Under the pieces are notes generated by a model. The model was not told where the DNA came from, did no database searches, and worked only from the letters and a program-made list of their open reading frames with translations. 64,000 bases of DNA. Origin: Cenococcum geophilum (lineage: Eukaryota). The stretch is taken from positions 3,224,001-3,288,000 of the forward strand of contig CP158635.1 of assembly GCA_050273025.1 (NCBI GenBank). The letters run 5' to 3'. Of this stretch, positions 2,666 through 47,100 are shown in pieces; the stretch's first letter is position 1, and every line of letters starts with the position of its first letter. The position numbers were made by a program, and so were the translations under genes.

Positions 2666-2877
2666 TTTGGCAGTGTAAGAACTTCGCTGTGGTGCACTAC
2701 TTGGTGTTTGCGGTCCCGCCTTGATAAAAAGTTCAACCTCGCTTAGGAAAAATATTGGCGTGCGACCCTGGTGGTTGATCACCGCAAGGATCTGGAACAA
2801 CACCTTGGAGGCTTTTAAGCGCAAGGGCAATTCAAACTATACGTTATAGGTTTATTTCACTTCAGCTATGCGCCAGA

Positions 2878-2899
2878 CCCCCCCCCCCCCCCCCCCCCC
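2878..2899. repeat. Poly-C tract (22 C; poly-G on minus) between the DOCK 3' end and the RRP12 start
   Basis: Direct reading of the sequence. Confidence 0.9.
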
Positions 2900-3280
2900 A
2901 ATCGGTCCTGAATTACGCCACATTCAAAACATCCTGTCAAATCCAGGAATGAGAACATGCAGCCTATCAAAGAACATGTCAACGACGGACTTTATCTGCC
3001 CACTAAGGGGGGTCTGGGTATAACACCGCGCATAGCACTCATACATATCCGAACAGTCCAGTCGGCCCACCGGCTCCACGCTCGAGGTGTGCGAGAAAAC
3101 AAAACCCCCTATCCAAAAGTAAAAGAACCCAAAGAAAATCTGGTGCGAGGTAAACAAAATTTTTCCAACCAACCGGGACCAAAAGAAGATTAGAAGTAGT
3201 ACCAATCAAACAACGAATCTGATAAAGCCCGATACTCAAGAAGATGGAACCTAGTGCAAGGAAAAATTGAAGAGTCCTTT

Positions 3281-6200: not shown

Positions 6201-9200
6201 TCCTGGCCTAGCTCCTCAACTTGAGAAGCTACGACCGAGCAACAGAGGCGTACTTGGTCTTTCCACTGCTCAGTGACAGTATTTACCTTGCCCCAATGGG
6301 GAGCAAGCCAGCGCACTGTATTGCTGAGCAGTACCCGTCGAGTGTCCGGTGTCTTGAAAACGTCGACTTGCGCGAAGTGAATGATGAGGACCAGTATGTA
6401 TAGAACAAGCTTTCCTTGTGCGGCCGAACAAGAATCAATGAAATCTGAAGCGAGCTTCAAGATTTCGGTGGGAGACATTGAGGGTGATAATTCAGGTAGC
6501 CAGGTATGGAAGTGTTGGACGACCAGTGTCTTGGTTCCGATAAGAATCGGTGCTGGGTTCGCCATGAGAGCCTCTAGTGACTTGAAGATATTTTGTAGGT
6601 CCTTCGTAAAGGTGGGCTGTCTACTGGTAATGCCAATACCAGCCTCTTTTTCTTTTTGTTGTTGTCGTGCATTCATGATAAACTTAAGAATGTGGCTACC
6701 GACCTTGAATGTTGCTCGCAGCCGGCGAGATGATTCCGGATCCACAGGGTTTGCCAATAGTCTTGTGTAGCTTCTAACCAAACAAGATGTTGCGAAAGGA
6801 TATTTGAACCTGTTTGCTGCGTACTGATCAACCAGTGGGCCCAAGTTGAAGCGCCGATCATGCACTATTCCAAGCACAATAACCAAGGCGTTGAAAACCA
6901 AGTCTTCGTACTCCTCACCTCCTGCATACTCAACCAAAATCTCAAATAGTGCATCGAAGACTTCGTTCAAAAGCTTCACAATCTCGATCTCGGGGACGAA
7001 GACAAATCTTCGAAGGAGTGCAGCGAGTTCTCCAGAGGCCTGGTCACGCCATTTTAGGAGGCCAAGAAGATTTGGATCCTGAGAGTATTTCGTACTACAA
7101 AGATATGTGCGAAGGTGGAGTGATGCCACTGGACCGGTAACAGATTCGTCTTTTCTTCTCGAGCTCCATGGAAGGGCAAGGTAAGCTCCACGACCCGCAA
7201 TCATGCTTGAGGTATATTCATCGTATTTATAAAGTGCTAGAGAATGGTCCCCGTCACGAACGAAGGCATCCTGGGTCCAAAGTGGCATCCAGCACAGAGC
7301 AAAGGGAAACCCAGGAGCGTCTGCTACGCTCATAACAATATGAGACCCAGGGACTTCCTCGGGGCTGATAGCAAGCCGAACCGTAAGGTTCCAACCTCCG
7401 CCCCGCTCAACCGCAGTTGTCCGCCATGCTGTATGCCCAGCACTATTACAGGAGGGATATATGCAGCCATCGATTCGCTCCCCAGTGGACTTACGAACCT
7501 CAATTGTTAGCTGAAGGTTACCCATCCCGGAAGTTTGCCCGAGAGGGACGGTTCCAGACTTAGGATGAGAGAGGAAGGCGTTACGTGGGAGGAAAGGCTC
7601 AACCAACGTCAAGTAGATATCACTTCTTGGCTTGGTTGGAGCCCCAGAGAATCCAATTTTCCGCGTCTGTTTGATATTGTGGAGTAAAGTTGGAGTCTTT
7701 TCGATCAACGTTTCTGCATCCGGATTGGCAAATGCTTTCACGTGGACATTGAGGCGGTTCACAAGCGAATGCTTCTTGTATCTACCGTTAGCACTTGGAT
7801 ACAACTCAGTGAGCAAGCTATCCCATTCCTCATTTTCATCCACTATCTCGTCGAAAGGCGATGGAGGTGTCCATAAGGTAACCGATTGTTCCGCTTCTGA
7901 TTGAGATTTCACTAGAGGGTCTACTCGGAGAAGCCCAACAGCCACAGTTCGCTTCACGGTTTTCTGATCTCTAGATGGGGTCCTTTGTTTAGCAGATTCA
8001 GGTCGACTATCAGCAGTTTGGCCTCGATTAGAATCAACACTCGTTGGTCTATGTTCGGAGCTCATGTTGATCGCTTCGGACTCCTTGCGTGCTTTGTGAC
8101 CGAACATGATGCTGCGACGTCCACCCTTGATGCTTCCAAACTGCGAAGCCTGGAGCGGGGGTGCATTCTGACTTGATGTGCTCTCACGCGGAGCACTGGA
8201 GCTGCCGAGGCTGGAACTGCCACAGTAGGGCTCGTTGGTTAATAATTTGAAGACGAGGAAAAGATTCGAGCTAGAACCCGCTCCTTCGCCAATATCCGTG
8301 GAACTTAGATCAACAAAAAGGGCCTTCATTTTCTCCGCATTAGGCCCTGCTGTTGCACCTTCCCGCGCAGAAAGGTCAATTGAGTACACTTCGGATAAAG
8401 GTTTTGGGGCAGAGCCAGGAATTTTAAGACAGAGATGTATGCTCACTTGAGCAGCTGTCTGGGTGAAGTCGCCTAGGACATTTCTAATGCTGACGAATAG
8501 ATGATGAAGATTGTGTTCGTCAATGTGCTGGACAGGTCGTTCCTCGAGCAAGCTCATTATGGACTGCAAGCGTGTAATTTCAATTGCGGAGTCGTCCCCG
8601 GTCAAGATCCGACCGCTCTGTGAGGGGCTACGCACGATCACTTCTCCACAGAGCATCTTATTGCCGCTAACAAGATCCCAAACGGTCACTTCGCGCACTT
8701 TACGCAGTTCTTGCGCAGTCAGCACCTTATGTAACAACTGCCGTCGCGCAGTATCTAGGCGTTGTACCAAAGCCGACATCTTGTCCAACGTGCTGTACCG
8801 CCTTGCAAGAAGAAGCTCATGTAACTTTGTAGAGTGCCATTCCCTCAGACACGACGCGATTTCATCTACCAGGGGTTCTTGTGTAGAAGTCGGAGTTTCG
8901 TCACCAATCTTCAGCATCGGTACAGGTGCCGGAGGTCGCGGAGCATTTGGGTCGCGTGAGGTGACAGATATTGGCGATAGCGGGAGCATAAGCTGCTGAA
9001 GATGATCTGAGCGCGCCGTCCATTGCGATCCATGACTTCCCGCTCTCTTTTTATTCGACTTTCTTCTCGGCAATGGAGACACAAGGGATGGAAGAATTAA
9101 TATTGGATCAGGCTTCGAGATTGGTTTTGTTCGCGGAACGGCTGTTTTGCCAGGTATTGAAGTCGCAGATGCGCTTTCAGTCGGGGTGATGACGCCGTTG

Positions 9201-9553
9201 GTATGCTGTTCTGCATGGCTGCCACGAGAGCTGGGGATTTTCTCAATAATGTCTGAGTTGCACCCAGGTGTTTTGCCCTCTCCAAGCACCTCGCGAACCT
9301 CGACGCAGCATCGCGGAAATATTCCAGAAAAAACGCGCGCCTCAAGGGTCTGGCCCCTGACACTCGTCAAACCGGCTAGCAGTGACGGAGGCGCAACCAG
9401 ATATCCTCGATACCAAGCTCCATCCTTCCCTCCCTGCTCAATTATGTATAATTCGTCGCCAATCTCAAGAGGTAGGTCGGCGGGTGACGAGGGTTGGAAG
9501 GGATATACACAGATTGCGAAAGCAATCCTAGGAAGAGGCCTCCAACCTGGCAT
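3281..9553 (-). CDS. DOCK-family guanine nucleotide exchange factor (N-terminal SH3, DOCK-N, C2/DHR-1, DHR-2; yeast Dck1-like), with a probable 69-nt intron at 3907-3975
   Basis: The 2093-aa ORF has its first ATG at 9553 (MPGWRPLPRIAFAICVYPF). SH3 motif DLPLEIGDELYIIEQGG..WYRGY; C2 region PRSDIYLTL; DHR-2 motifs YIRYVHQL, EAGLALRLHAELYEW, YFRVVYKGLGFP, AFPTILRRSEI. Intron reads GTACGT...GCTAAC...CAG. Confidence 0.92.
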   Translation of the reverse strand: MPGWRPLPRIAFAICVYPFQPSSPADLPLEIGDELYIIEQGGKDGAWYRGYLVAPPSLLAGLTSVRGQTLEARVFSGIFPRCCVEVREVLGEGKTPGCNSDIIEKIPSSRGSHAEQHTNGVITPTESASATSIPGKTAVPRTKPISKPDPILILPSLVSPLPRRKSNKKRAGSHGSQWTARSDHLQQLMLPLSPISVTSRDPNAPRPPAPVPMLKIGDETPTSTQEPLVDEIASCLREWHSTKLHELLLARRYSTLDKMSALVQRLDTARRQLLHKVLTAQELRKVREVTVWDLVSGNKMLCGEVIVRSPSQSGRILTGDDSAIEITRLQSIMSLLEERPVQHIDEHNLHHLFVSIRNVLGDFTQTAAQVSIHLCLKIPGSAPKPLSEVYSIDLSAREGATAGPNAEKMKALFVDLSSTDIGEGAGSSSNLFLVFKLLTNEPYCGSSSLGSSSAPRESTSSQNAPPLQASQFGSIKGGRRSIMFGHKARKESEAINMSSEHRPTSVDSNRGQTADSRPESAKQRTPSRDQKTVKRTVAVGLLRVDPLVKSQSEAEQSVTLWTPPSPFDEIVDENEEWDSLLTELYPSANGRYKKHSLVNRLNVHVKAFANPDAETLIEKTPTLLHNIKQTRKIGFSGAPTKPRSDIYLTLVEPFLPRNAFLSHPKSGTVPLGQTSGMGNLQLTIEVRKSTGERIDGCIYPSCNSAGHTAWRTTAVERGGGWNLTVRLAISPEEVPGSHIVMSVADAPGFPFALCWMPLWTQDAFVRDGDHSLALYKYDEYTSSMIAGRGAYLALPWSSRRKDESVTGPVASLHLRTYLCSTKYSQDPNLLGLLKWRDQASGELAALLRRFVFVPEIEIVKLLNEVFDALFEILVEYAGGEEYEDLVFNALVIVLGIVHDRRFNLGPLVDQYAANRFKYPFATSCLVRSYTRLLANPVDPESSRRLRATFKVGSHILKFIMNARQQQKEKEAGIGITSRQPTFTKDLQNIFKSLEALMANPAPILIGTKTLVVQHFHTWLPELSPSMSPTEILKLASDFIDSCSAAQGKLVLYILVLIIHFAQVDVFKTPDTRRVLLSNTVRWLAPHWGKVNTVTEQWKDQVRLCCSVVASQVEELGQEACEYIPKLADSYRAIQSIPRSSKSSLSLLFPTSYPFPSRPTTTAAVFDEALIEISAVLAAMSSLPTIIHLDWPKADIADFLFSALQVYISILDGEAFPTSWLSVHIYHHKATMRTLEKLASILIDSFLPHPDEADQFNTDLWRAFFDALLKLVGSDALALETFPEQKRRAVWKIAGDVRELGADLLRRSWEAIGWETSSEDRKQYGLEKMGGFQVQYVPGLVAPIVELCLSVHEGLRSVAIEVLQTMIVSEWTLSQDLALIQAEMIDCLDRLFKSKHLTESILQKLFIGELIDLFEPLAQEPEDPLFLAVKNLITTIDELLDLLVAVHSTEATGEVFHIMDTLHLMEFLKDMQKEDIYIRYVHQLVNLQADAQNFTEAGLALRLHAELYEWDPTMVVEALVDPAFPAQTSFERKEQLYFQMIKYYEDGLSWDNALGTYMELATQYEHNIFDFSKLARTQRAMATIYESISKGERQNPRYFRVVYKGLGFPVGLRDKQFIFEGSPSDRLATFTDRMQQQHPSAQILQAGGEEDVEGQYLHIYPVSPQKDLLHPIYQRAKVAQPIRDYYLLSRPTHFTTTSRRQGPEASIKDQTVEKTVYTTAEAFPTILRRSEITSVGNVTLTPLQTAIERTARKTTELLALEKRAADGEDSAFTSLTQELMMAVDPASETSIANYRDLLPKTRDSIEIDEEEEEEQEEERPANLLENALKVAMMDYALVMKRCLALYSRPAHQATKADLTQRTYKLNKIFKATVQASSQLTNYSGFEATFAYELTALMPGSQGPLMRSPTTSWLAASSPSLVTSPIAPPTNHINGTQTSVVPEIKPGRHEKNRLSLTFLKRGSVSEPREGRKQTKPPVEEDVENQSNRASSRSRSKDAGKHRLSFLHQTSTNESAPAPSQPQNQSLVQTQAQSRNSQSIDRRPETSKSEQSSSHSFGNRVGSVRKRLSLLHIGRKASKNSVKGRLDETLAEE

Positions 9554-10638
9554 GTCGCACACGCAACCTGATCGCGCTATGTTGGACCGTGTTGGAGCGA
9601 AATCATTACGGGTCGAGGAGGTCGAAGGGGTCTCGCAGATGGACTCGAGATGTGTAGCTGGGTGCTTATGTCGCGTTGCTCATCTGCATGAAGGACGCCC
9701 CTGATGGAATAGGGACGGGATGGAGCGAGCGATGGACTGAGCGCCGATCGGTAGAGATTCTGGGTTAAGATGTTCAATTGGGTTGAGTGTCTAGCGTAGC
9801 AAGCCAGCCAGGGAAGGGAAGCGGGCGAATGATATGGCGGAAAAAGCCAAGCCAAAGGAGCAAGAATTGAGGAAGTTAGTAGAAAACGGTTTGTTAAGGG
9901 TCCAAGCGTTGCTTGACCCAAGGGGCTGTTCCTGCGTTTGATGTGCTTGGCGTCGTCTGCTCATCATCGATTCTACCTGACGGTTTCGACAATGCCTTTG
10001 CATGCTACCAGTAGGCTCTACATGTCTGACAACCCATGCCTGGCAATCCATGCCTGACAATCCATGCCTCTGCTGGCCGGCTTTTCCTGCCTATTTCCAC
10101 CATGGAACCGTTCGGATGATTGTCAGCATATTATCGCATCGGGAGAGAGGTGTAACCACCTCATAACCAATATCGTGGTGTGCGCACACCTAAAGGCCGC
10201 CGCTCAAGGATCTGATAGCTATCTCGTTACAAATCCAGCAACATAAATTTGCTTAGAAGTCATGTGAAAAGTTGTTGCTAGTCTACAAGTGTGGCCCAAA
10301 AAAAGGCGCCAGCGCTAATTATGGCACCCGATTTGGCGCGCTACCGTACAGCGTCTCTTCAATTCCGGTGGTTAGCGCAGCCACGTCTGCACGGCCTTTT
10401 TGTAGGGGAACTTTTGGTATTTTTGCTGTTTAAGGGAAAGTTAATAAAACACGCTAACCACCGGATGTGCCAGGAGGCTGTAGATCTGCCGCCCAGCCTG
10501 CGTTTCTAGTAACCAAGTGAGGTCCGTTCAGCCTTTTCTGGATTCCATTTTACAGCTTACCAACAGCAACAACGACTGGTTATGCAGACCACCTAGCGTG
10601 AAACAACTTTATCATGCTACGCACTTGGAATTTCCAAC

Positions 10639-15050: not shown

Positions 15051-18000
15051 ATTAGGAGCTCTTGCTGCACCCGGCCCAAAAAGACCAAAAACAACCAAAA
15101 GAACCCTGAAAAACACCCAGAGAATCCCCCTGAGATGCATGCATCGCAGGGGAGACACACGTCGAACGACGGTGGTTCGCACTCGCGCGCGCCTACCAGA
15201 ACCACGCCCAGCAATAGCCCTCTACAATAAGAACGGGCGAATACTATACCACAAAACGGAAAGACCTCTATTAAGAAGGCATCTAACAAAATATAAAGCC
15301 TATTAGATGCGTCTAGTATCTATAGTTATAGGGAAGCGACCGTTAGCTATAATGAACTAATATAGCTAGTAGAATAGCTCCGCTAATCTAGCGTACCTTA
15401 GGTGCCTCTTTAGCAAACCCTTAACCAAATCCTCTAACGGCTAAGTAAAATTAAAAATAAATAAAATCCCTCCCTACCGGCGAACCGTACCTAGGCCGCT
15501 GTAGCTGCGCCTCTATAGTATAGGGAGCCTACCCCCCTAAAGATAATATCTAAATATATAATTATAATATAACTAAATATAGAGAAAGTAGAGGGGCTTA
15601 GGGGATAATTAGAAATAGAAGTTTTTATAGAAATTTATAAAGAGGTTTATAACGCTATTATAGTCTAATACCTTAGGAGCGGAGATATTAAAATCACCCT
15701 AAGGGACTAATAGGTAAAGGAATAAGCTATAAGGGTAGGGGATAGGCTAGGAGAACGTATTAGTATAAAAGTACTCTATAAAGATTACCTAGTTAAAGTC
15801 CTAGTGGTTCCCTTAAGCCTTAGGGTAGAAAAGGGACGCCAGGCGAATAATACGGCAACTATATATAAGATAGTAAAATAAACGGAACGCCTTATACTAG
15901 GACTTAAGATCACCCAAATCTAATAGCTTTAATAGGAAAATGTAAACTAAGTATATAATAAGAATAATAAAAGAATATAAGGGTCGCTAGAGACTCGCTA
16001 GGGAGACACTGGTTAAACGTATAGCTCCCTTATTATTAGCATATATATAATAATAATAATAATTCATTGCTTAATGTCCGATTCGGATCCCTATTAGGCC
16101 CACGCGGACTACTCCTTATTTATATGTGGGGAGAAAACTCTATTTAAGAAAAATGAGAAAACCCCGTGATCCATCTCCCCGCCTTTTAGGACTCGCCTGC
16201 TTAGCGCCTATGAGTCGCCTATGGTGCTTTACTACCTTACTATTTGACCTCCTTAGGAACCACTGCTGCTGTAACAAGCCTACGGACGCGCTAGTATTAT
16301 AAACTATTACTCTACTACTGTAGAGTTACTAGGGGGCACCTGCTGTTTGCCCCCTTGCCTTTTATTACCATTTCCCTTGCAACCCGGAACTGATTTAGTA
16401 TATTTTAACTAATAAGCTACTGGGTGACCGCCTTAAGGCCTTTTTATGTTGAGAGCAGTGTATTATAGTTCTCTGTGCCAGCTGCTGAGAGTATTATTTC
16501 TTAATTGGTGCGTAGGGGGCATAGCAGTATTACGTGTTTTGGTGTTTGTCTTGGCTAGCCATATTTATATCTTGGGCTACCTACTGGGATACCCACCCAG
16601 TAAAGCCAATCTTTTAGTCCTATTATTCCTATTCTTAAGAGTATTGCTATTATGTTTTCTGCCTTTGTTAGGCCTTCTTAGAGCCCTTGGGTATTTACCC
16701 CCTATAGCGTTAACTATGCTATGGCTTGGGTTTGTCTTGCCTAAGTCAGCCTCTATACCTTTGACTTCTATTTACCTCTCTAGCGTTGGTCCAACCAGTA
16801 TTGTATTGCGGTAGATGGTTTCCTGGCATTCTTGTGTATTCTACTTTAGCTCCTTTCTCTGTCTTGCTGTTGTCTTTACTGACCTCTTGCGCGTCTCCCT
16901 TCCTCCTCTATATAGGCCTGGGCCCTAAAGCGGCACCATTTTTCTTCTGCTTTCTTTACCTGATTAGTATATATATACTAGGAATGCAAAAACTTCTTAT
17001 CTAAAAAGGTATTATTATAAATAGCCTTATATATAACGCAAGGCTCTATAACTATAAACTTCGCCTAAAATAATGCTACTGCTATATATAATAGGGACAC
17101 ACCCAATCTATATGCGTAGTATAGGTGTGCTACGGCCACTATATAGGCCCCTATAATATAAGAAACTGCTTAAATTAAAACTAAATAAAATACGTAAACT
17201 GCCACTAAAGCATATATAAGGCGTGGGAGAGAGGAGACTGTATTAAATATAGGAAACGGAAGGTAAGGGCTTAACAGCTATAGGAATAACTGCACGCTAG
17301 GTTATATAAATAGAAACAACAGGCGATAAGCTAGGGGGGCGTAGGTGCCTTTTTAGCATTTCCTACCTTTAATACCGGGGGGCTAGGCCAGCCATCCTAA
17401 GCCTTAACGGGCTAAAAGCGTTGCCGCGCGATATTACTAGACTATATAGGGATATAAGGGTTATAGGGGACATAAGGGAGAGGATGCCCTATAGGAAGAC
17501 TATTATGGACAGCTATAGTAAGCTTAAGACCAGGATAATTAAGAATTAGACTTAATACGGTAAATATAATATTTATAGCCAACTCTTAAAGGGTATATAG
17601 CTAACTAGTAAGAATAGGGGAGGAACCGGAGATAATAATAGATTTAGATATAGAAGCGCTACTAGGAATATAAGATACGGGAATAAAAAGCTCTATATAA
17701 AATAAGTAGTAACTAGGATATAGATATAAGAGACAGAAGCTCTAAATATCCTAGAGAAAGTAGAAATAGAGGAAGTAAGGAATAAAGGAGAGGCGAAGGA
17801 CCCTCGCTAGGGGTCCGCCACCTATCCATTATATAGTATAACTGCGGTAATATAAACCACCGTCTTACAAGGCCCTTGCTAGACAGCTTAGACCTAGAGA
17901 AATACTACATCCTTACTATATAAGAGCCGTATTATAATACCTACATACAATTAATATACTGCCCCTAAGGATTCTAGCTCCTATATAAACTAAAAGCAGC

Positions 18001-21000
18001 TATATACGTATACTTTATAATTAGCAAGGCTATCAGCCTATCCTTATAGTTATGGCAGGCAGTTAACCTAGATATTACAGTTATAATAATCTAGATATAT
18101 AGGGGACCGGTTTAGATTATTAATGTATATAACCCTAGGGTTAAAGGGGTCCTATAAATAGAGAACATTATATTAGTAATAAGCTTACTAGAAACCGAAG
18201 ATATAGAGTCTATCCTATTAGGAGATATAAACCTCTACCACCTATAGTGGGGGGGTATCTATATTGCTGCCGAACAATAGGTAGAGTGCCTACTAAAAGC
18301 TATAGACACCTAGGGCCTTAAGCTAGCCACCCCCCTAGGAGCAATTACATGGCAATGAGGTACCGCTAGAAGTATAATTAACCTTATATTTATGGACGAA
18401 GGCCTATACTAGAGACTTAAAAGGTATAACCCTAAAAAAGAATAGGCACTCGCTTTAGACTATATCCCCATCCAAATACAGCTAGATCTAGATATTAAGG
18501 CATAATTAAATAGCAAAAGATATGTAATAAGAAAGCTTAAGACAGACAGCTTCCTTAATATAGTTAAATAACAACTTTAAGACCTAGAAGAAATCCACCC
18601 AATACCAAATAAGCGAGGCTTAGTAGCTACCCCTAAGGAAATCGACTAAAGACTAGAAAGGATCCAGGCAGCAATTAAAAATGGGTTAGAAGAGCACTGC
18701 CCAGTCTTAAAAGCGGGCCCCTATGCGCGACACGCATGGTCCGTATAATGCGCGGTTCTTATTACTAGCTAATAACGAGCAAGAAGAAAATATATAAGTA
18801 GCTATAATCCTAAAGATAAGAGACATTATAAAGACATAAGAAACTAGCTAAAGAATACCCTAAAAAAAGAAGTAAGGAATAGCTGGAGACGGTTTATAAA
18901 TAAGTATACTACTAACCTGAGCCTCCCCTATAATAAAGGTCTTTAGAGGATAGCAAAATAGGCAAAAAAAAAAGGCAGGACGTCCAGTAGAAGACCTATA
19001 CCTTCCGCCCCTACAAAGACTAGGTAAATTACTGGCTATAAGCGACAATAATAAGAAGGCAAAAATCCTTATAGAAAGATTTTTCCCCTAACCAGCTTTA
19101 ATAGACCTTAGCAATATTACAGGCAAAGCACTAGTGACTTACCTAAGGGTTAATAGTGATATAACAACCGAAGAAATAGCCAGAACTATTAGCCGCCTTT
19201 TAAATAACATAGTACTAGGACTAGATGGGATCCTAAATAAAGCCCTAAAGACCTGCGGACTACTAATAGCACCTTAGCTTGCGGATATAGCTAAAGTATA
19301 CTTTATAATAGGCTACTACCTAAGACTTAGAAGAGCTATAACAACGTTTATCCTACGTAAAGAAGGCAAAGTAGACTACTTATTTCTAGGGAGCTACCGC
19401 CCTATTACCTTAGAGAATACCCTTAACAAGATCTTAGAAAGGGTAATAGCGGACCATATAGCAGATATAGTAGAGGAATACGCCCTACTACTACAAAGCC
19501 AAATAGGGGCAAGAAAGAACCGCTTAACACTATCAGCACTTACGCTACTCACTACTACTATTAAATTAGTATAGGCGATGCGAAGGGACTTTATAGTATT
19601 AATACTTAGCCTAGATATTAGTGGCGCCTATAACAATATACCCCATAAGCGTCTCCTATACATCCTTAGAGTAAAAGGCTTCCTAGAATAGATTATACAA
19701 TTTATTTAAGGGTTTACAGGCCAAAAAGAAACATTATTAGTCTTTAGCGGATACTAAAGCCCCCCTATCGCAGTTACAACAGGAATACTATAAGGATCAC
19801 CCCTCTCGCCTATACTTTTCCTTTTCTTTATAAGCAACCTACTTAACTCCTTTAAGGAAGGGGCAACCTAGGGGATAGGCTTCGTTAATAACATAAACCT
19901 AATTATATATAGGCTAATAGCCGTAGAGAATTACAAAATGCTAAAGAAAGCTTATAATACCTATATAGAATGGGCAAGACAATATAGAGTCTAATTCTTA
20001 CTAGAGAAGTACTAGCTAATCCATTTTATAAGAAAACGCAACTAATCTATAGATCTTTAGCACATAATTCACATCTAAGGCTTTAGGGGTCAGCCAGTTT
20101 AGGGCCTAAGAGTATTAGGAGTATAGGTAGACAGTAAGCTCCGGTAGAGCGCATATACGGCCTAAGCGGCCCGTAAGGGCTAAGCACAGTATATCGCATT
20201 ATCTAGGATCGTTAATTCTACATAGGGCCTATGCTTTTAGAGGTTACGCCTACTATATATAGCAGTTGTCCGGCTAACCATAACGTATAGGTCCAGTATT
20301 TAGGCCATTAGAGAATCTAAGAAAGGCCCCCCTAAATTGCTCCTTAAACCACTCTAAAAGGTCTAAACAGCCTACCTCTAGAGTATAATAGGCGGATATA
20401 AGCGAACGGCTACAGCACTACTTGAGAAGGAAGCTAATATTCCCCCCCTACAACTATATATTAAAGCCGCTGTAATATAAAGGGCGCAAAAGGAACGCAA
20501 CTCTAATGTTATAAAGTATATTAAGATACGCCTAAATAAACTATAGAGGGACTCTAGGGCGCCTTATAGGAGAACAAACCAATAACCCTAAAGTAGGGAA
20601 GATATATTAGAGAAATAGGTAAAGAAAGCAGAAGAAGAATGGTACTGCTTTAGGGCCTAGGCCTATATAGAGGAGGAAGGGAAACGCGTAAGAGGCTAGT
20701 AAGGACAACAGTAAGAGAGAGAAAAAAGCTAAAGTAAAGCATAAAAGAACGCCGGGAAACCAACTACCGCAATACAATACTGGCTAAACCAACGCTAGAG
20801 AGGCGTATAGAAGTTAAAGGTACAAAGGTTAACTAAGGTAAGAAGAACCTAAGCCGTAGCATAGTTAACGCTATAGGGGGTAAATACTCTAGGGCTCTAA
20901 GAAGGCCTAATAAAGGCAGAAAATATAATAGTAATACTCTTAAGAACAGGAGTAATAGGACTAAAAGACTGGCTCTACTAGGTAGGTGTCCTAGTAGGTA

Positions 21001-21533
21001 GCCTAAGATGCAAATATAGCTAGCCAAGATAGACACTAAAGCACGTAATACTACTATACCCCTTATATACTAACCAAGAAGTAATACTCTTAGTAGTTAG
21101 CATAAAGAACTATAAGATACTGCTCTTAATATAAAAAGGCCTTAAGGCGGTTACCTAGTGGCTTATTAGCTAAAATATACTAAACCAGTTCCGGGTTATA
21201 AAGGAAATAGTAATAGAAGGTAGGGGGGCAAGTAACGGGTGCCCCCTAATAACTCTATAGCAGTAGAGTAAAGTTTACAATACTAGCGCGTCCGTAGGCT
21301 TGTTACGGCAGCAGTGGTTCCTAAGAAGGTTAAAAAGTAAGGTAGTAGGAGCACTATAGGTGACTCGTAGGCGCCTCGCAGGCGCCCTGTAGGCGAGTTC
21401 CAAAAGGCGGGGAGATAGATTACGGGGTTTTCTTAAATAGAGTTTTCTCCCCACATGTATATAAGGAGTAGTCCGCGTAGGCCCAATAGGGATCTAAATC
21501 GGACGTTAAGCAATGAATTATTATTATTATTAT
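15051..21533 (+). mobile_element. Near full-length Tad1-like LINE copy B: ORF1 gag-like with CCHC knuckles (~15135-17800), ORF2 AP endonuclease + RT + C-terminal zinc knuckle (~17830-21215), (TAT)n tail
   Basis: De-RIPped motifs QYNC/ILAIQEP, LGDMNLHHP.WGG, GPDGIPN, SYRPITLENTL.KILE, SLDISGAYDN, GIPQGSPLSPILF, GFVDD, LRTGVIGL..WL...C.CG..RQT.KHVIL.CP. A 14-bp TSD tatatttttctttt lies at 15037-15050 and 21534-21547. Confidence 0.9.
16050..16962 (-). mobile_element. 5'-truncated LINE copy C (same family) inserted into ORF1 of LINE B
   Basis: Reverse complement of the last ~0.9 kb of LINE B including the tail. ~15-bp TSD attag(c/t)atatatata at 16035-16049 and 16963-16977. The empty site is visible in LINE A near 25700. 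Confidence 0.9.
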
Positions 21534-21729
21534 TATATTTTTCTTTTTCAAGTTAGTGCTATAGCCGTTCGCTTATATCTATATATTATTCTCTAAAAAT
21601 ATACTATTTAAACGCTTTAAAGTGGCTTAAAAAGCGTTTTAGAGGGAAACTTTTTAGTTTCTTTAATAGCCTAAATACTAAAGCTATATGTTATAGTTAG
21701 CCAGATACTCGCTATATATAGTAGGTATA

Positions 21730-26239: not shown

Positions 26240-26540
26240 GTAAAGAATATATATTAAAGAGTAAAAAATAAATATTAACTATAAATGGGATAGGGTTAAG
26301 CGATAGGGTTTCTTATACTATTTTTACCATTTTTTAATTACTTAGTTATTATTAGTAACTTAGTACTTTACTAGGGAGCTATAAATACCTAATCTAAGAG
26401 TTTATAAACTATTAGAATATAACTGCTAGTATATATTAAGCTACCTATAAAGGATTTAGATATATAGAACTATAGCGCTATTAGTTAGAGGCTATATATA
26501 TAATATAATATAATAGGTATATATATTTTAAAAAAAAATA
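26240..26540 (+). mobile_element. 3' end fragment with A-rich tail of the RNase H-bearing LINE family (family of LINE D)
   Basis: Colinear with 36770-37050 (..tttataaactattag..gtatatattaag..ctatagcgctat..tagaggctatatata..poly A). Confidence 0.65.
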
Positions 26541-26561
26541 CACGTTATTACTTATATATTA

Positions 26562-27580
26562 GTAGTAGTTCTTTAATTAACGTCTGATACGGATCCTATC
26601 TAGGCCTACGCAGACTACTCCGTTATAGGGGGAAAACTTGTGTATTTATAGGAAGAAAACCCTGCAGTTAGGTTGGGGGAGGAAAAACCCTATAAGCTAC
26701 CTCAGTAGGATGAAAAACCCCGATTTGCTATATCCGTCCGTAGCGGCGGCCCTGCGGGCCTACGGCTACGTTCTGTCTCCTTGGATGTTTTGAACTCCTT
26801 GGGTACTACTGCTTCCCTCTCCAGCTTATCCTAAGCTGGGGTTCACTACGTCCCAGCTAGGCCTTGCCGATCAATTGCCGTGTATTGTTGTTGTCGTTTC
26901 CCATATTATTGACCGTCCCCTGTGTGCTATCTCTTACTAACCATTGCTATATACGCTATGCCTCCCCCCCCCTAGGGCCTATTGAAGGCGTAAGGGGGAT
27001 TTATCCATAAACTACCACTACACTATACTATAAGGCGAGCGGGACGTGTATGCCTGGGTATCTTTTATGCCTAGGCCCCAGTCACTAGGCCCTCGCCAAG
27101 GGTCACCACTCCTTAAGAGGAGACAGGAAAACCGTACGGTGTCGTCTAGGCTGCTAGGTTTTTCTTAGTATTTAATAGTTAATGGCGAGTGACCGTATGC
27201 TCCGCGGGCGATCGCCCTAAGGGTTAGGAGGGGCCGTATATTTGCTCGTTCGTTCGTTTGTTTATCCGCGTTCGTTTATTAATGTGAGGTCGTTAATACT
27301 TTCAATTGGGGGTTGGGGGACGTTAAATTCTATATGTATCCGCGAGGATTATATAGGGTTGGAATAGGAGAACAGTGTAGCTAAATTGTAGAGGGCCAAC
27401 AGTAGTGGTTTTCGAGATCTCACTATCTGAAAATTTTTCACCACCGCCTAGAACGCTCACAACCACCACCAGGTCCTATCCGCAGCTGTGTGACGTCTCT
27501 GCGTTGGCTCTACTGAGTCCGAAGACTAGTAGGTTCGTAGGCCTCACCACGTATAGGTGCAGAGTCTGATTTCGAGGACC
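26562..27580 (-). mobile_element. Non-autonomous SINE-like retroposon with a 5' HDV-like ribozyme and a LINE-derived 3' tail
   Basis: 13-bp TSD tacttatatatta at 26549-26561 and 27581-27593; no ORF. The 3' end (ggagtagtctgcgtaggcctagataggatccgtatcagacgttaa + (CTA)n) matches the LINE B 3' end (ggagtagtccgcgtaggcccaatagggatctaaatcggacgttaa + (TTA)n). Confidence 0.85.
27497..27580 (-). ncRNA. HDV-like self-cleaving ribozyme (predicted double pseudoknot)
   Basis: P1 GGUCCUC/GAGGCCU (G1-U wobble, one mismatch); P2 CUCUGC/GCAGAG; P3 ACC/GGU; L3 UAUACGU; P4 CUACU-AGUC(UUCG)GACU-C-AGUAG; J4/2 AGCCAAC with a candidate catalytic C at 27507. G1 coincides with the element's 5' end next to the TSD. Confidence 0.8.
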
Positions 27581-27593
27581 TACTTATATATTA

Positions 27594-28192
27594 CTATATA
27601 CCTCTCTCCTATCTATAAGGCTTATTAAAGGTATAATAGTGTTTACTTCTAACTAGCTTTGTAATACTAAGAGGTAGGTAGGATATATATATACTAGGGA
27701 TCTTTTATACCTAAGCCCTAGTTACTAAGCTCTTTTTAGGGTAACTAGTTATAGAAAGAAGATAGGTAAACTATAGGGTTATAATTTAAGCTAATAGGTA
27801 GAATATAGTATAGACGGTAATTAACTATAAGCTCTATAGGCGATTGCCTTAAGGATTAGAAAGGGGTATATAGTTAATTTATTTAATAGTTCGTCTATTA
27901 ATATAAGGGGTTATTAATACTTTTTATTAGAGATTAGAATCTATATTATATCTATAAGGATTATATAGGTACCTAAAATAGAAGTATATAGTAGCTATTA
28001 TTTTATAAAGGGGTATTAGTAGGAGTCGTTTTTAAGATCTTACTATCCTATATAAAAACTTTTTACTACTACCTATAATGCTTTAATAACTACTAGGTTA
28101 TACTTATACGCTATATAATATCTCTATATTAACTCTACTAAGCCTAAACTTTAAAGACTATAGGTTTATAGCTATTACTATATATAGATATA
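27594..28192 (-). mobile_element. Older, more heavily RIP-mutated partial copy of the same ribozyme-headed retroposon
   Basis: Colinear with 26950-27560, e.g. gcgattgccttaaggattag vs gcgatcgccctaagggttag, tttaagatcttactatc vs ttcgagatctcactatc, tctctatattaactctacta vs tctctgcgttggctctactg. Confidence 0.75.
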
Positions 28193-41118: not shown

Positions 41119-44100
41119 TGTTACGGACGCTTTAAGTATAATATTACGATTACTTAGAGAAGAGACGGAAGAAGCTAGTTGGTTAATTTAGGTATGGTCC
41201 AAAATAGAGCCGATAGAACTATATAATGAGGAATGGTAACTAAAGTCACATAATATACTACGTGTTGAATAAGAGGAATAAGAGGAACTCACGTACCTCG
41301 CGTATAAGACGTATATTATGTATAAGAAAGGATTTTATAGGAGTACGGTTGTGTATTTAAGGACCCTTAGTCCCTACCTAGATAGTTCCTTCCTTATAGT
41401 AATTCTTAGAATACAATTAGAGTTAATCTATTAGGCAACCACTCTACTAGTTATTATTACGTTATTAACTTTTATACTTACATTTCTTATACACCTAGCC
41501 CAATAATAAGCCTACCGTAGTTCTTGCTACAAGGTTCCGTTATATAATTACTACCTAGTTATGGTATTAATATAAGAAGTTAAATAACATGCTACTAAAA
41601 GCAGCTACTATAACGCCATTAACGGCAGCGACTACTTTAAGGATAGAAGGTAATACTAGTATAGCAGATACTAACTTATAGCAACCTATGACGGTTAGAC
41701 AGCTATAGGAGGTAGTTAACTAGCTAATAGCTAATAATATAGTGTTAGAAGAAAGACTTAACGGAATAGGGGTAGCAAAGATTAAGCTATTATTAATTAA
41801 GAGATTTGCAGGAGAAAGGTTAAAGCTTAAAGGATTTCTTACGTAGATGCACTTTAAGGTCTTATAGAAGGGAGTAAAGTTACTTATACCTGTGGATCGG
41901 ATAGCCTATACAGGACTATTCTTATTAGGAAAAGCACTTAAGTAGTTTAAACCTTACCTTATAGAGATATAGGCGAATGGAATAACAACCACTAACTAAG
42001 ACGTGCGATTTATATTCTTAAGTTAGGAAGGATTTATAGAATAACTTACGCAGATATTTGGAGACCTAAAAAAAATAACTATAGCGGAAAGAAAACTCCA
42101 GAACCTTATATAACGAACTTTAGCAATTAAGTATATAACACAGTTCTAGACACTAGTAATAAGAGTAGAGTGGAATAATAGGGCGCTTATAGTATAGTAT
42201 AAACAGGGACTTAAGGCTAAAGTTTAGGATGTAATTATCCTAATAGAAGATATGGATACCCTAAGGGAACTAATAGATTAGGCGATTAAGATTAATAATT
42301 AGATCTACTAAAGGGAATAGGCTAAAAAGGGCTAGGATAGAGTTCTATAGTTATATAAGGCGCAAAGTACGCAATAATAAAAGCTAAGTTAGAAACTATG
42401 GTATAGCGCAAAGCTAATAGACCTAAGTGGTACTAAAAAAGCCTATAAAAAATAGAGTAAACTATAGAAACCTAGAGGACAGGGATTAAGTAATTAAAGG
42501 TTTAAGGAGCAAAGGCTAAATCAGGGATCTTAACAGCAGAAGACATTCAGGCGGACTCTATAGTAAGAGAAATGGTTTAAAGAAGGAGCTTACATAAATT
42601 ACGGAAAATAGGGTCATTATGTTAGAGACTGTAGAGGTAGGCAGAGTTACTATATAGTAAGGGGTATGAGACTAGTAGGCGACATATATGTATAAAGGGA
42701 TAATAATATGCTGCGAGGAACAAAAGAATATTTAATTAAAAGTTTTGCGTTTTATTATAATAACACATACTAAATTTATAAGGACGCTAAGTATGGCGCA
42801 AGCTATTAGCTATAAGAGCCAGCACCTATAGGATATAGAGGAACTAATAAACCAGTTTATAGATCGGATATTAAGGACAATAAATTTAACCTAAGTAAAA
42901 TATTCCATAATGATAAGGCAATAAGGGCCGCTTACTAGGAGTAAGTAGACCTTAAAGATGTTATACTAGAAGTAGAGGATAATTCTACTACAGAATAAGG
43001 AATATTAGTAGGGATTAAGACCCCACTAGATACGATGTCTATTACTTTGTAAAATGTAAGAGAAGTAGGATAATAAACCACTTCGGCACTTAATAAAGGC
43101 AAAAGGCTAAAGGCTTAAGATTCTTAAGATAAGATAAAAGACGACTAAGATTTTTAAGGCGAGATAAGGTATACCCAAGGACCTATAATGGATGAAAACC
43201 GATAGAGTAGGGCGGTAGCTTAGTTTAGAAATATACGAATAAGCTTGGGATAGAGTTTCCCGCAGGTATAAGACTCTTAAGATAAAATAAGTAAGATTTA
43301 AGAATCTCAAGACGAGATAAGAACACTATGGATACCTAGTTGGACTAAGGCGGAAACTAAGCTTAAGTTAGAAGCAAGCTTAGGATTAAAGAATCTAAGG
43401 GGCTAAGATTTCAGAATACGAATAAGGACACCTATAGGTAAAAGGCAAGGAGCTTCTTTATAGATTAGAGAATCTGTAATATAAATAGCAGCTAGACTAG
43501 GAGACAGATATATAGACCTAAAAAACTTACTAGGGGAATGCAGTATTTAGCCTAAAAATTAAAAGTTTAATACTAAGATTAAGAAGCAAGATAACTTTAA
43601 GAATTAGAGCGTAAGGCGCAAACCAAAAGAAACTATAGAAGAGTTTAGATAAAGAATTATCGCATAGTAAGAATAGAAACTAAATAAGAAATCTAGTATA
43701 TTGGGACGTATAAAGGATAGAGTACTAGTATAAAGAATTACTAATAGGCCGAGAGTAGGTATACTAAGAGCCAAGTGGCTTACTGAACTGGAAAATAAAG
43801 AGAATTTAGGGATTCTAACTAGGTTTAAAGAACGATATATAAAGGGCTATTATAATGCAGTAGTAAGAAGATACTTCCTTACGGATAGACCGTATATACT
43901 CCAGCAGCTATACTAAAAGTGGTATAGGTAAAGACATAATAATAAGTAGGAAGATTTCTACATATAGTTAGACAAAAAAGTTATCTAAAACTACCTAATT
44001 ATGGAAAAGGCTATAACATATATTAAAGGAGCCTTAATTATAACGTTAAAGGATCTAGAGGAACATTTAGGGGATTAAAGAAGCGAGAGACGCATCTTAG

Positions 44101-47100
44101 TACCTGCGAATAAAGTCGCAACGTTTAGATCAGTATAATAAAGGTTTAAACTTAGGGATGAAGACGAGCTAAGAGTTAACCCAAAGTACCTAGCATACTA
44201 TACGTTATTATAGATTGCGTATATGGACAATATATATAAAATGCATAAGAATCCAAAGGAAAAGAATTGGAAATACCCTATGAGAATATACTAGATAACG
44301 GACAAGCAATAGTACAGAAATGCTAAATATATATATAGATAGCATCCAGCAGAGGTCTAAGAGGAAGAAAGTTTAGTACTTTAACTAGGAAGATTTCTTA
44401 TAGAAGAATACTTAGACGGATAACAGTAGTGGGAATGCCCAAAAAATATATATTTATGGTATATTAAAGACAAAAAGCGAACTAGGTATTAGCTAAAAAG
44501 TAAGCTAAATGCACTAGGATTAAGCAGCTAATAGTTAGGAAAAGTGGAGGCCTATAGGACCAGAGGGAGCCAATAGTAGAGCCTTAGACCCTTAAAGGAA
44601 TTTAAGGACAACACCTAAACTTATAAATTAATTGGCAAGATTAGCAGTTTAAAGCGCTAATAGATAGTAGAGTAACGCGAAACTATATCTTACTAGCAGC
44701 AGTTAAAAGAATAGGACTACCTTACAAACAAAGGGAGTAACCTTACCCATTAGTTACAATTTTAGGGGATCTAATAACCTATAGAAAAGGGATTATTAAT
44801 CTTAAAACAGGACCTATTTAGATAACTATTAAAGGAAGACTAATTAAGATGTTTTTTAATATCCTACTATTAGGACAGGACGAGGCAGTATTAGGTATAT
44901 CTTAGTTATAGGAATATAATCTAAGGATTAATTAGATTACAGGTTAGGTCGTTATTAGAGATACTTAATACTATAAGACGTAATAATAAGCTAAGTTGGT
45001 ATAGTACCAAGTAGGAGCAACCTATAAAGAAATAAAAAAGGGACTAAGTTATATACTAAAGAGATACCATAAGTATAGCAAAAAACTATAGTTACCGGAA
45101 AGTAAAAAGCTATTAGAATATATAGTATGGGACTATAAAATAGAGTTAGAACCAGGAATAAGTCTAAAGTTCTTTCCAATCTATAAGCTTACTAAAGAAG
45201 AAGGTAGAGCATTAAAAGAGTTTATCTAGGAAAATCTATAAAAAGGATATATTAGACCATCGCAGTTATTAGCAGGTTATTCAGTACTATTCATACTAAA
45301 GAAAAATAGCAAACTAAGGCTATATATTAATTACAAATAGTTAAACAGTATTACTAGGAAGAATAGGTATTCTTTACCCTTAATTAGCGAAATCTAAAAT
45401 AGGATAGGCAATGCGCAAATCTTTATAAAAATAGATCTAAGATAGGCGTACCATCAGATTAGGATTAAGGAAGGCGACGAATAGAAGGCAGCCTTTAGGT
45501 CAAAGGAAGGACTATATAAGCCATTAGTTATACAATTCAGGCTTATAAACGCACTAGCAACGTTCTAGAAGCGTATTAACAATATATTAGGAGAACACTT
45601 AGATGAATTTATTATGGTATATCTTAATAATATTATTATCTACTTAATAACTAAGGAGGAACACAGAGAACACGTCAAATAGGTCTTAAAGAGACTATAA
45701 AAAGAACAGATGCCAGTAGCAATTAAGAAATGCGAGTTCTTTACCAGGAAGACCAATTTCGTTAGATTTATTATTAAACTAGGCTAATTTAGCATAGATC
45801 TAAAGAAGATCGAAGCTATAGTAAATTAGCAGGAACTAGAGAACATTATATAGTTAAGATTATTCCTAGGATTTTACAATTACTGCAGAAGGTTTATAGC
45901 GTAGTAGTTAAAGGACATTAAACCATTTACGCGGTTAATAAAGAAAGAAGAACTATAGGTATAGGGAGAGGAGCAAAGAGAACTCTTTAAGAGAGTTAAA
46001 GAGTTGTTTACCTAAGAGCCAGTTCTTAAGATCTATTAACTAGGACTAGAGACGGTTATAGAAACAAATATATTAGACTATACACTAGGAGCATACTTTA
46101 TATAAAGGCATTAAAATAGATAGCATCTAGTAGCATACTATAGTCGGAAGATAACACTACTAGAGTTAAACTATGACATTTACAACAAGGAGTTATTAGG
46201 TATAGTTATAGTATTAAAGGAATAGAGAGCATTCTTATAAGGTATAGAAAAACTATTTATAATTAAAACGGATTATAAGAACCTAACAGGATTCCTAACA
46301 ATAAAGGAACTTAACTAAAGATAGGTTAGATAGGCAGAGATACTTATAGAATACTATTTCGAGATTTAGTATACCAAAGGTACAGATAATATAAGGGCAG
46401 ATGCTCTAAGCCGCAAAGCTAAACTACAAAATGAGGAAAAGCTATTAGGGGCTTTATTGCAAAAAGATACAGACGGATTAATTAGGTACAATTATCCAAA
46501 AATCGCAGCAACTTAAGAAGACGACGAACTAGAGAAAGTCTACGAGACACTAGAAAGCTTTTAGGCATAAAGAATTCTAAAAGCATAGCTAGAAGATCCA
46601 TAGATGGATATATACGAAAATTAAGAAGTAAAGTACATCCTAAAAAGCATAGCAGAGTAGTTTATAGAGGACTTCTATAAGGGGCTAACTTAAGGACATA
46701 ATAGAGCCATAGGCTTAGTGTTAAGACTCTAGGAGGAGTATATTATTAATAGAATCTAGAGGATAGCTAGAAGGGTTATTAAAGAGTATCTAAATTGCTA
46801 AAGAAATAAACTAATAAGACATAAGCTATATAGAGGGCTATAACCTATTAAAATACTAAAGAGACTATAGGAGGTTATATTATGGGACTTTATTATTAAG
46901 TTACCAAAATTAAAGGATCCTATTACCGGACAAGATTATAACGCGATCTTAATAATAGTAGATAAGCTTATAAAGTGGGGATACTTTATAGCATATACAG
47001 AAGAAATCTTAGCGGAGGATATCGCTAGAATCTACGTTAAAGAAGTATTTACAAGATATAGAGTACTAAGTAAGATTATATTAGATAGAGATTTAAGATT

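Follow-up and report, generated by a model that had tools for sequence, protein, structure and literature searches.

A LINE-dependent, non-coding retroposon family of Cenococcum geophilum that probably begins with a hepatitis delta virus-like ribozyme

Introduction

What fixes the 5′ end of a non-coding retroposon whose head does not come from a gene of RNA polymerase III (Pol III)? The question is raised by a 1,019-bp element in a 64,000-nt stretch of DNA from the ascomycete Cenococcum geophilum (GenBank assembly GCA_050273025.1, contig CP158635.1, positions 3,224,001 to 3,288,000); this whole stretch is called the window below. A first-pass annotation of the window had proposed that the element is a retroposon whose first sense nucleotide (G1) opens a hepatitis delta virus (HDV)-like ribozyme, that its 3′ end resembles the end of an adjacent long interspersed nuclear element (LINE), and that no such family was known to it from filamentous fungi. 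Our analysis supports a closely related reading, to which we give a probability of about three in four, namely that the element belongs to a LINE-dependent non-coding retroposon family in whose source copies an HDV-like ribozyme stands at the start and cuts 5′ of G1. Window coordinates are collected in Table 1, and sense positions count from G1.

Results

A retroposon family with one fixed 5′ end

The window copy lies between two exact copies of the 13-bp target site duplication (TSD) TACTTATATATTA, as the first-pass annotation had seen. This 13-mer has exactly two matches in the window, both flanking the retroposon, and two matches occurred in none of 100 shuffles (mean 0.19). The sense strand starts with GGTCCTCG and terminates in ACTACTAC (26562-26569), the short trinucleotide tail that had been described; other copies end for the most part in (TAC)n and occasionally in (TTA)n. 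The description of the element as lacking an open reading frame (ORF) also stood, since a frame scan found no stop-to-stop frame of at least 70 aa overlapping 26562-27580 and no ORF is conserved among TSD-flanked copies. The longest ATG-started ORF of the window copy is 33 aa, and the longest ORF in 42 TSD-flanked copies reaches at most 99 aa, with strand and frame varying. The retroposon is surrounded by AT-rich DNA that resembles the product of repeat-induced point mutation (RIP; GC 0.25-0.40), and the adjoining genes have a GC content of ~0.5.

Further copies were sought in metagenome sequences with a purine/pyrimidine pattern of sense nt 3-40 in which A and T letters were kept, and at least 121 loci were obtained, 80 of them with 1.5-kb flanks. 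All family counts given here rest on the matches listed, and the fungal DNA that could be searched amounts to ~307 kb. The results showed that the copies stand in unrelated surroundings up to G1: among the matches listed, 120 of 122 upstream 30-mers are distinct, and pairwise identity averages 0.336 upstream of G1 vs 0.910 downstream of it. Position +1 is G in 107 listed copies, A in 12 and C in 1. With the lightly mutated copy L009 as query, at least 60 listed copies align over positions 1-1019, and there are 64 further pieces, 42 of which end at the edge of their locus. TSDs were assessed in the 66 listed copies whose loci run on for 1,100 nt or more downstream. An exact duplication of 12-19 bp (mode 15), ending at G1 and following the tail, is present in 42 of them, and all 42 differ in sequence; the remaining 24 have shorter duplications or none, and some duplications are displaced by 1-9 nt. 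When flanks were paired with those of the wrong copy, none of 1,302 pairings reached 12 bp. The TSD-flanked copies are 981-1,029 nt long. The expectation that full-length copies begin at G1 and carry variable TSDs, as a retroposon with a fixed 5′ end should, was thus confirmed.

Variable TSDs, a 3′ end in common with an autonomous LINE and the lack of coding capacity characterize LINE-dependent SINE-like elements (SINE, short interspersed nuclear element), and all three were found here. Together with the read data below, these results place the window element in a very abundant, transcribed retroposon family without long terminal repeats (non-LTR) of a RIP-bearing ascomycete, and this family is incapable of moving by itself.

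Several individual copies have histories of their own. One copy (L075) is nested within a LINE copy, another (L010) carries an insertion of ~790 nt after its nt 185, and in a third (L073) an additional GGTCC separates the TSD from a head that starts with A, a small 5′-junction duplication. In the window, just past the TSD, positions 27695-28082 (minus strand) hold an older and degraded remnant from the same superfamily of retroposons, which matches body positions 129-253 and 351-525 of a second subfamily (subfamily B, below) at 68-77%.

The 3′ end is common with a LINE that has a different 5′ end

The LINE copy of the window encodes an endonuclease (Exo_endo_phos_2, E 4.5e-7) and a reverse transcriptase (RVT_1, E 2.1e-17). 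It is stop-ridden, with 126 stops in one frame, and no further domain was detected at E values up to 1 in its 3′ third or its 5′ kb. When the last ~100 nt of the retroposon were aligned with three LINE 3′ ends, 74-88 of 91-107 positions were identical, and the alignment scores were 26-53 vs at most 19 for shuffles. Farther from the 3′ end, the stretch at 101-300 nt scored above all 200 shuffles in 14 of 15 comparisons, for which reason the figure of ~250 nt of LINE-like sequence given earlier is fair: the likeness is strong over ~100 nt and weaker to ~270 nt. The LINE's own terminal motif with (TTA)n is present in three family copies (L002, L022 and L028).

The 5′ ends tell a different story. 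All three LINE copies have the identical start GGAGCTC... in unrelated flanks, and this start is unlike the retroposon head, so that the identity to the partner LINE's 5′ end seen in SIDE- or NARTc-type elements is absent from these three LINE copies and the listed loci. No LINE sequence follows any of the 121 listed retroposon heads, and blastn found no LINE similarity in the retroposon body outside the 3′ part. Given the differing LINE 5′ end and the lack of a head-LINE junction among the listed loci, the retroposon is not a simple deletion derivative of this LINE, and for this LINE the concern that its body might prove to be a deleted LINE piece was not borne out. At the joints of the LINE-in-LINE nesting in the window, the overlap of the query alignments suggests a duplication of up to ~24 bp.

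The first 84 nt can be folded as an HDV-like ribozyme

Among copies, the first 106 nt differ by transitions only, and transversions and indels are seen from about nt 107 on; the search pattern constrains positions 3-40 and leaves 41-106 free. The candidate fold was examined with a descriptor anchored at nt 1, which requires at least 6 of 7 pairs in P1 with G1 paired, a 3-bp P3, a 7-8-nt L3, a 2-bp P1.1, a P2 of at least 5 bp, and C-N-A-A preceding the 3′ strand of P2. The copy L009 satisfies it with a predicted nested double pseudoknot in the canonical order P1, P2, P3, P1.1, P4. Dinucleotide shuffles satisfied the anchored descriptor in 42 of 200,000 cases, in 13 with a P2 of at least 6 bp, and in 0 of 200,000 when the U and G of L3 were additionally required, rates that are optimistic because the tolerances of the descriptor were chosen after the candidate had been seen. 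The descriptor is passed by 56 of 120 listed copies. RIP-type changes are responsible for the failures, which include the window copy, where A27 (27554) breaks P1.1. The proposal of an HDV-like fold starting at G1 thus holds for the less mutated copies such as L009, and the fold of the window copy itself is incomplete; this copy is a dead descendant with RIP-type G-to-A changes, G27A among them.

Individual positions of the head are unevenly preserved. P1.1 pair 27-44, counted in 39 of the 122 heads (37 distinct low-mutation heads of the main subfamily, subfamily A, with subfamily B and the window copy), is G-C in 29, G-U in 5 and unpaired in 5. In L3, G31 is present in 91 of 120 listed copies and is replaced by A in RIP-mutated ones, and U26 is set by the search pattern. 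The candidate catalytic cytosines of J4/2 are C74 (118 of 120 listed copies) and C75 (95 of 120). The putative cut site, 5′ of the first P1 nucleotide, is G1, the very point at which the 120 flanks diverge.

Away from the starts of family heads, an unanchored loose form of the descriptor gave 56 matches in the 307 kb (both strands). The strict form was passed by 18 of these matches: 16 family-A heads with a P1 drawn from the flank, one unrelated sequence and one diverged head. Nested minimum free energy (MFE) folds recovered P2 and P4 in subfamily A, and P1 and P4 in subfamily B. Two other pairings were considered and rejected: a P1 partnered by sense 104-109 (the window copy has AGGACC there), since 108-109 read GG in the majority of copies, and the MFE hairpin of 2-5 with 14-17 in subfamily A, which is unpaired in subfamily B.

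In comparison with the HDV and CPEB3 ribozymes, the predicted fold has the same order and nesting of P1, P2, P3, P1.1 and P4, the G1-U pair that closes P1 at the cut site, a 3-bp P3, the U...G positions in L3, and a J4/2 cytosine followed by N-A-A. The corresponding nucleotides in HDV numbering are U20, G25 and C75. It differs from them in the identity of the P1.1 pairs, in one extra J4/2 nucleotide and in matching no Rfam model.

Compensatory changes in subfamily B and in Blumeria Eg-R1

Subfamily B, known from one copy (L007:643-742:-), has 76-84% body identity to the main subfamily, and its head is kept over nt 17-35 (18 of 19 positions) and over nt 72-84 (13 of 13). Its P1 is GGCCGUC with GACGGCU, in which C5-G38 has become G5-C38 and the U3/C40 mismatch has become C3-G40. 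Among the 39 heads, pair 5-38 is accordingly C-G in 38 rows and G-C in 1, and pair 3-40 is unpaired in 38 and C-G in 1; only two pairs show both-sided changes in this count. P4 of subfamily B is likewise rebuilt, and P4 pair 51-69 in the 56 least mutated copies is G-C in 41, A-U in 7, G-U in 8 and A/C in none. The copies decay neutrally by RIP, which makes pair statistics within the family nearly uninformative. A blastn search with the subfamily B head returned that copy alone besides the 121 listed A heads, and a 24-nt core aimed at diverged heads had 0 matches in the viral and genome contig collections.

A more distant comparison is offered by Eg-R1 (EGRT1) of the powdery mildew Blumeria graminis (Wei 1996; Nottensteiner 2018, PMC6022598), an element of more than 3,000 copies whose 1996 description called it "SINE-like but not a SINE". 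According to PMC6022598, Eg-R1 is without A or B boxes, has internal T runs, and is Pol II-transcribed and polyadenylated; its 5′ end was set by the consensus of 23 TSD-flanked insertions, and a product of rapid amplification of cDNA ends (5′-RACE) begins at the same base. Across eight Blumeria non-LTR families the likeness is greatest in the first 100 nt, and two families have 88 nt in common. Eg-R1 and Egh24 together are reported to make up ~10% of the Blumeria genome and to flank effector genes (PMC6022598).

We took the Eg-R1 5′ sequence from supplementary Table S2 of that paper and compared it with the Cenococcum head by eye only. By this comparison, Eg-R1 can form a P1 of GGGGGAC with GUCCCCU (7 of 7 pairs, G1-U), a P2 of CUCAA with UUGAG and a P3 of ACC with GGU, together with a 7-nt L3 with U1 and G6, a P1.1 strand AC, a GAAC linker and a long P4 hairpin, and its AGCCAA stretch precedes P2. 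P3, P1.1, the GAAC linker and AGCCAA are identical in the two families. Both sides have changed with pairing kept at P1 positions 4, 5 and 6, and likewise at P2 pairs 20-81 and 21-80. The U and G of L3 and the C letters of J4/2 are thus found in subfamily A, subfamily B and Eg-R1, and the 5′-RACE end of Eg-R1 is the first nucleotide of P1. Compensatory change therefore backs P1 and P4 within the Cenococcum family, and P1 (positions 3-6) and P2 (two pairs) in the comparison by eye with Eg-R1. Judged from the sequence, the Cenococcum head appears visibly homologous to the Eg-R1 5′ end.

The Eg-R1 peptide ROPIP1 has no start codon, and its N-terminal part is read from the nucleotides placed here in P2, P3, L3, P1, P4 and J4/2 of the head. 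A role in translation has been proposed for R2-type ribozymes (Ruminski 2011, cited in PMC5786205). A link between ROPIP1 and ribozyme-assisted translation is possible, and a ribozyme of Eg-R1 may enable the start-codon-less translation of ROPIP1; this is speculation.

Transcription of the family

Four public sequencing runs were placed on 26300-27850. In two DNA runs, 4,149 and 2,499 short contigs cover the retroposon at 88-99% similarity, and repeat read depth is near zero outside 26560-27599. In a stranded RNA run, the summed bin depths of first mates are ~12,777 on the plus strand vs 486 on the minus strand (26:1), so that under the usual library convention the RNA corresponds to the minus strand, i.e., the sense strand. 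The first-pass annotation had proposed that the element is cut out of read-through transcripts; this bias suggests that the family also has a promoter of its own, which may lie in the head or in the ~20 conserved nt after it, as in Pr77 of L1Tc. No joint skipping the retroposon (empty site) was found in the four runs, a result of little weight given the low head depth and locus-specific flanks.

In an RNA run with a second organism label (X21), the expressed copies that map to 27159-27511 belong mostly to another subfamily: 88% of reads continue into unlike sequence, and 7 nt are missing from 233 of 395 reads at 27159. At 27511, the consensus of the loose ends is similar to the P4 region of subfamily B and suggests a different P1.1 dinucleotide. 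In the left flank, a stretch of ~100 bp (26404-26507) is very high-copy in both DNA runs (summed depth ~1e5 in run X1), and its neighbours are not.

Discussion

Weighing the explanations

The following course of events would account for the family. The reverse transcriptase of the LINE would recognise the 3′ tail, i.e., the ~100-270 nt copied from the LINE 3′ end, and the RNA would be inserted by target-primed reverse transcription at TA-rich sites. The first ~84 nt of source copies would fold as an HDV-like nested double pseudoknot and cut the transcript 5′ of G1, leaving a 5′-OH end, and the copied RNA would then start exactly there whatever promoter was used, with no need of a head derived from a Pol III gene. 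By the comparison by eye, Blumeria Eg-R1 opens with this head too, its P1 and P2 having been rebuilt through compensatory change.

A number of observations weigh against a ribozyme. The nested MFE folds are not better than those of shuffles (z -0.5 to -1.3), and Rfam gave no match, HDV-type models included, at E values up to 10 for the window region or up to 1 for 10 low-mutation loci; the HDV-type models of Rfam are narrow sequence families in which pseudoknots are not scored. The P1 of the main subfamily contains the U3/C40 mismatch, P1.1 consists of a G-C and a U-A pair where HDV-like ribozymes usually have two G-C pairs, and an extra nucleotide, C78, stands between the C-N-A-A motif and P2. 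The descriptor was set with the candidate in view, and it has no match at the LINE 5′ end (15055). Conservation of the head reaches ~nt 106, past the ribozyme candidate; P2, P3 and P1.1 are invariant within the family; P2 is backed by one published sequence, compared by eye; and subfamily B has one known copy. In RNA, read ends did not pile up at 27580, which carries little weight because head depth is low and flanks are locus-specific. Finally, the strand bias of the RNA argues for an element-borne promoter, which alone could fix the 5′ end.

This last point leads to the explanation that the head has structure but no catalysis and serves as a 5′ module, such as an internal Pol II promoter bearing a 5′ stem-loop, and that the start of transcription sets G1. 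Element-driven transcription is what the strand bias implies, and the extent of conservation to ~nt 106, the restriction of covariation within the family to the nested helices P1 and P4, the P1 mismatch and the lack of an Rfam match would all suit such a module, as would the reported Pol II transcription and polyadenylation of Eg-R1 (PMC6022598). The first 77 nt of L1Tc (Pr77) are both promoter and ribozyme (PMC3383444), and a promoter role of the Cenococcum head is plausible in any case because these 77 nt serve both roles. What a promoter by itself does not need is P1 complementarity preserved through transversions. The pseudoknot helix P2, moreover, has two both-sided changes in Eg-R1 (by eye), U1 and G6 of L3 are kept and C-C-A-A is invariant in three lineages, and the full HDV-type arrangement was found at nt 1 in at most 42 of 200,000 shuffles; we therefore consider a purely non-catalytic module unlikely. 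Far less credible is that a conserved 5′ end accommodates the HDV-like drawing by chance. The few dozen loose-descriptor matches off the family heads and the late choice of tolerances speak for it, and it is opposed by the rate of 2e-4 or lower when the descriptor is anchored at nt 1 and by the changes in subfamily B and Eg-R1 (the latter by eye), which fall on partners and restore pairs.

Of two further alternatives, the first concerns the origin of the element. It could be a bipartite internal-deletion derivative, in the manner of R2 SIDEs or NARTc, of an unseen LINE with the same head. The head would then come from a LINE and not be an independent one of SINE type, and such an origin would be compatible with a ribozyme. 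HDV-like ribozymes are present at the 5′ ends of six LINE clades and of deletion derivatives of these in animals and trypanosomatids, bipartite non-autonomous LINEs usually retain the 5′ end of their LINE (PMC5786205), and the searchable fungal DNA was small. The sole LINE family seen, however, has the same tail and a different start in 3 of 3 copies, and neither the sequence after the listed heads nor the body outside the 3′ part is LINE-like, which leaves this origin improbable. The second, a classical SINE of Pol III type whose tRNA, 5S or 7SL head has diverged, would have the same build of head, body, LINE tail and TSDs. Against it stand the lack of an Rfam match at the E values given above, the lack of a tRNA match by ARAGORN in 8 loci and the window region, the length of 1 kb, and the T4-T6 runs at conserved sense positions from about nt 150 on. 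These results agree with the first-pass annotation's inference that no Pol III head is needed, and a Pol III SINE is close to refuted.

Relation to known elements and significance

Non-autonomous non-LTR elements with an HDV-like head are known from trypanosomatids (NARTc/L1Tc and SIDER/ingi; PMC3185411, PMC3383444, PMC4035085), where the ribozyme in the first ~77 nt (L1TcRz) sets the RNA's 5′ end and doubles as internal promoter. NARTc/L1Tc is the best working model for the Cenococcum head. The trypanosomatid head, however, is the partner LINE's own 5′ end, whereas the Cenococcum partner LINE starts differently, and these elements belong to other hosts and other LINE clades and show no sequence likeness to the Cenococcum head. 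Like the Drosophila R2 SIDEs (PMC3414825), the family combines a 5′ HDV-like ribozyme, here a predicted one, with the 3′ end needed by the LINE reverse transcriptase. In R2 ribozymes, P1.1, P3 and L3 are conserved, P1 varies in a compensatory manner, and P4 and J1/2 are variable, a pattern that matches the present one; about a quarter of R2 elements have mismatches in P1, and the G of L3 is critical (PMC3774820). SIDEs are internal deletions of R2 that occupy a single rDNA site and are cut from the 28S co-transcript, whereas copies of the Cenococcum family are scattered over TA-rich sites and have a head other than that of their LINE. With classical SINEs, whose heads derive from tRNA, 5S, 7SL or snRNA, the family has in common a head, a body, a LINE-derived tail, TSDs and, as we infer, mobilisation in trans; it is unlike them in a head not derived from a Pol III gene, a length of ~1 kb and internal terminator-like T runs.

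The closest likeness is to Eg-R1 and related "BG_Non-LTR" elements. These too are (nearly) non-coding, several hundred bp to 1 kb long and present in thousands of copies with TSDs, and Eg-R1, like the Cenococcum family, has no A or B box, has internal T runs, is transcribed and has a fixed 5′ end (PMC6022598). By eye, the first ~83 nt of the two have P3, the frame of L3, P1.1, GAAC and AGCCAA in common, with P1 and P2 rebuilt, and conservation across the Blumeria families is highest in the first ~88-100 nt, as it is in the head of the Cenococcum family. The differences are that J1/2 has 4 nt in Eg-R1 and 9 in the Cenococcum family, that the bodies and 3′ ends differ (an AAUAAA signal and poly(A) RNA in Eg-R1, a LINE-copied (TAC)n or (TTA)n in Cenococcum), and that Blumeria, unlike the Cenococcum host, is without RIP (PMC6022598).

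What was already known, then, is that non-autonomous non-LTR elements with ribozyme heads exist in trypanosomatids and Drosophila and that SINE-like elements without a Pol III head exist in a fungus, Blumeria. The first-pass annotation, which was not aware of such a family in filamentous fungi, has to be corrected in this last respect, since Eg-R1 and Egh24 are of that build; its ribozyme reading does seem to be unpublished. In the literature searched we found no report of an HDV-like ribozyme head on a fungal retroposon and no publication linking Eg-R1 to a ribozyme, and the available part of a paper on a transposable element-rich, RIP-bearing ectomycorrhizal ascomycete (PMC12910237) makes no mention of a ribozyme or of such an element. 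New, it appears, are the ribozyme reading of the fungal head, the occurrence of that head in a second ascomycete, one that bears RIP, and a head that does not come from the partner LINE. If the head does cut itself, this would explain the exact 5′ end of a Pol II-type, promoter-poor SINE-like element, a question that has stood since Eg-R1 was described in 1996, and it would define a SINE-type build whose ribozyme head is derived neither from a Pol III gene nor from the partner LINE. More tentatively, and with slightly more doubt than confidence, we suggest that the ~85-105-nt head may be an old, portable HDV-like ribozyme module common to SINE-like retroposons of distant ascomycetes (the Cenococcum family, powdery-mildew Eg-R1, NonLTR-5_BG and kin), which would define 5′ ends with no head of Pol III origin and no dependence on the LINE 5′ end.

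Features of the window

Table 1. Positions of the retroposon, the parts of its head and the partner LINE in the window (nt, nucleotides; sense positions count from G1).
Feature	Position	Strand	Remark
Full-length retroposon copy	26562..27580	-	1,019 bp; ~1.0-kb non-coding family; sense = minus strand
TSD copy beside 3′ tail	26549..26561	.	exact TACTTATATATTA
TSD copy adjoining G1	27581..27593	.	exact TACTTATATATTA
Conserved head, sense nt 1-106	27475..27580	-	among copies transitions only
HDV-like ribozyme candidate, sense nt 1-84	27497..27580	-	descriptor, shuffles, pair counts
P1	27574-27580 with 27539-27545	-	sense 1-7 with 36-42; G1-U42 closing, U3/C40 mismatch
J1/2			sense 8-16
P2	27559-27564 with 27497-27502	-	sense 17-22 with 79-84
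P3	27556-27558 with 27546-27548	-	sense 23-25 with 33-35
L3	27549-27555	-	sense 26-32; U first, G sixth
P1.1	27537-27538 with 27553-27554	-	G27-C44 and U28-A43 in majority sequence
P4	27510-27532	-	sense 49-71
J4/2	27503-27509	-	sense 72-78; holds C-C-A-A
3′ ~100 nt common with LINE 3′ end, terminal ACTACTAC	26562..26661	-	alignment vs shuffles
Weaker LINE-like stretch, 101 to ~270 nt from 3′ end	26662..26831	-	alignment vs shuffles
Partner LINE, 5′ part	15055..16058	+	start GGAGCTC..., same start in L046 and L081
Partner LINE, rest	16963..21538	+	endonuclease and reverse transcriptase; (TTA)n tail at 3′ end; strongly RIP-mutated
5′-truncated copy of same LINE, nested in full-length one	16046..16962	-	

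Elsewhere in the window, positions 41500-55000 hold the RIP-mutated bodies of two LTR retrotransposons of Ty3/gypsy type (RVT_1, RT_RNaseH, integrase zinc domain, SH3_Tf2-1), and near 54.4-54.8 kb there is a match to DUF6570. Positions 1-9700 are gene-rich, with a GC content of ~0.5, and include an RRP12-like HEAT-repeat gene (~2-2557, minus strand) and a 2,132-aa open frame (3281-9679, minus strand).

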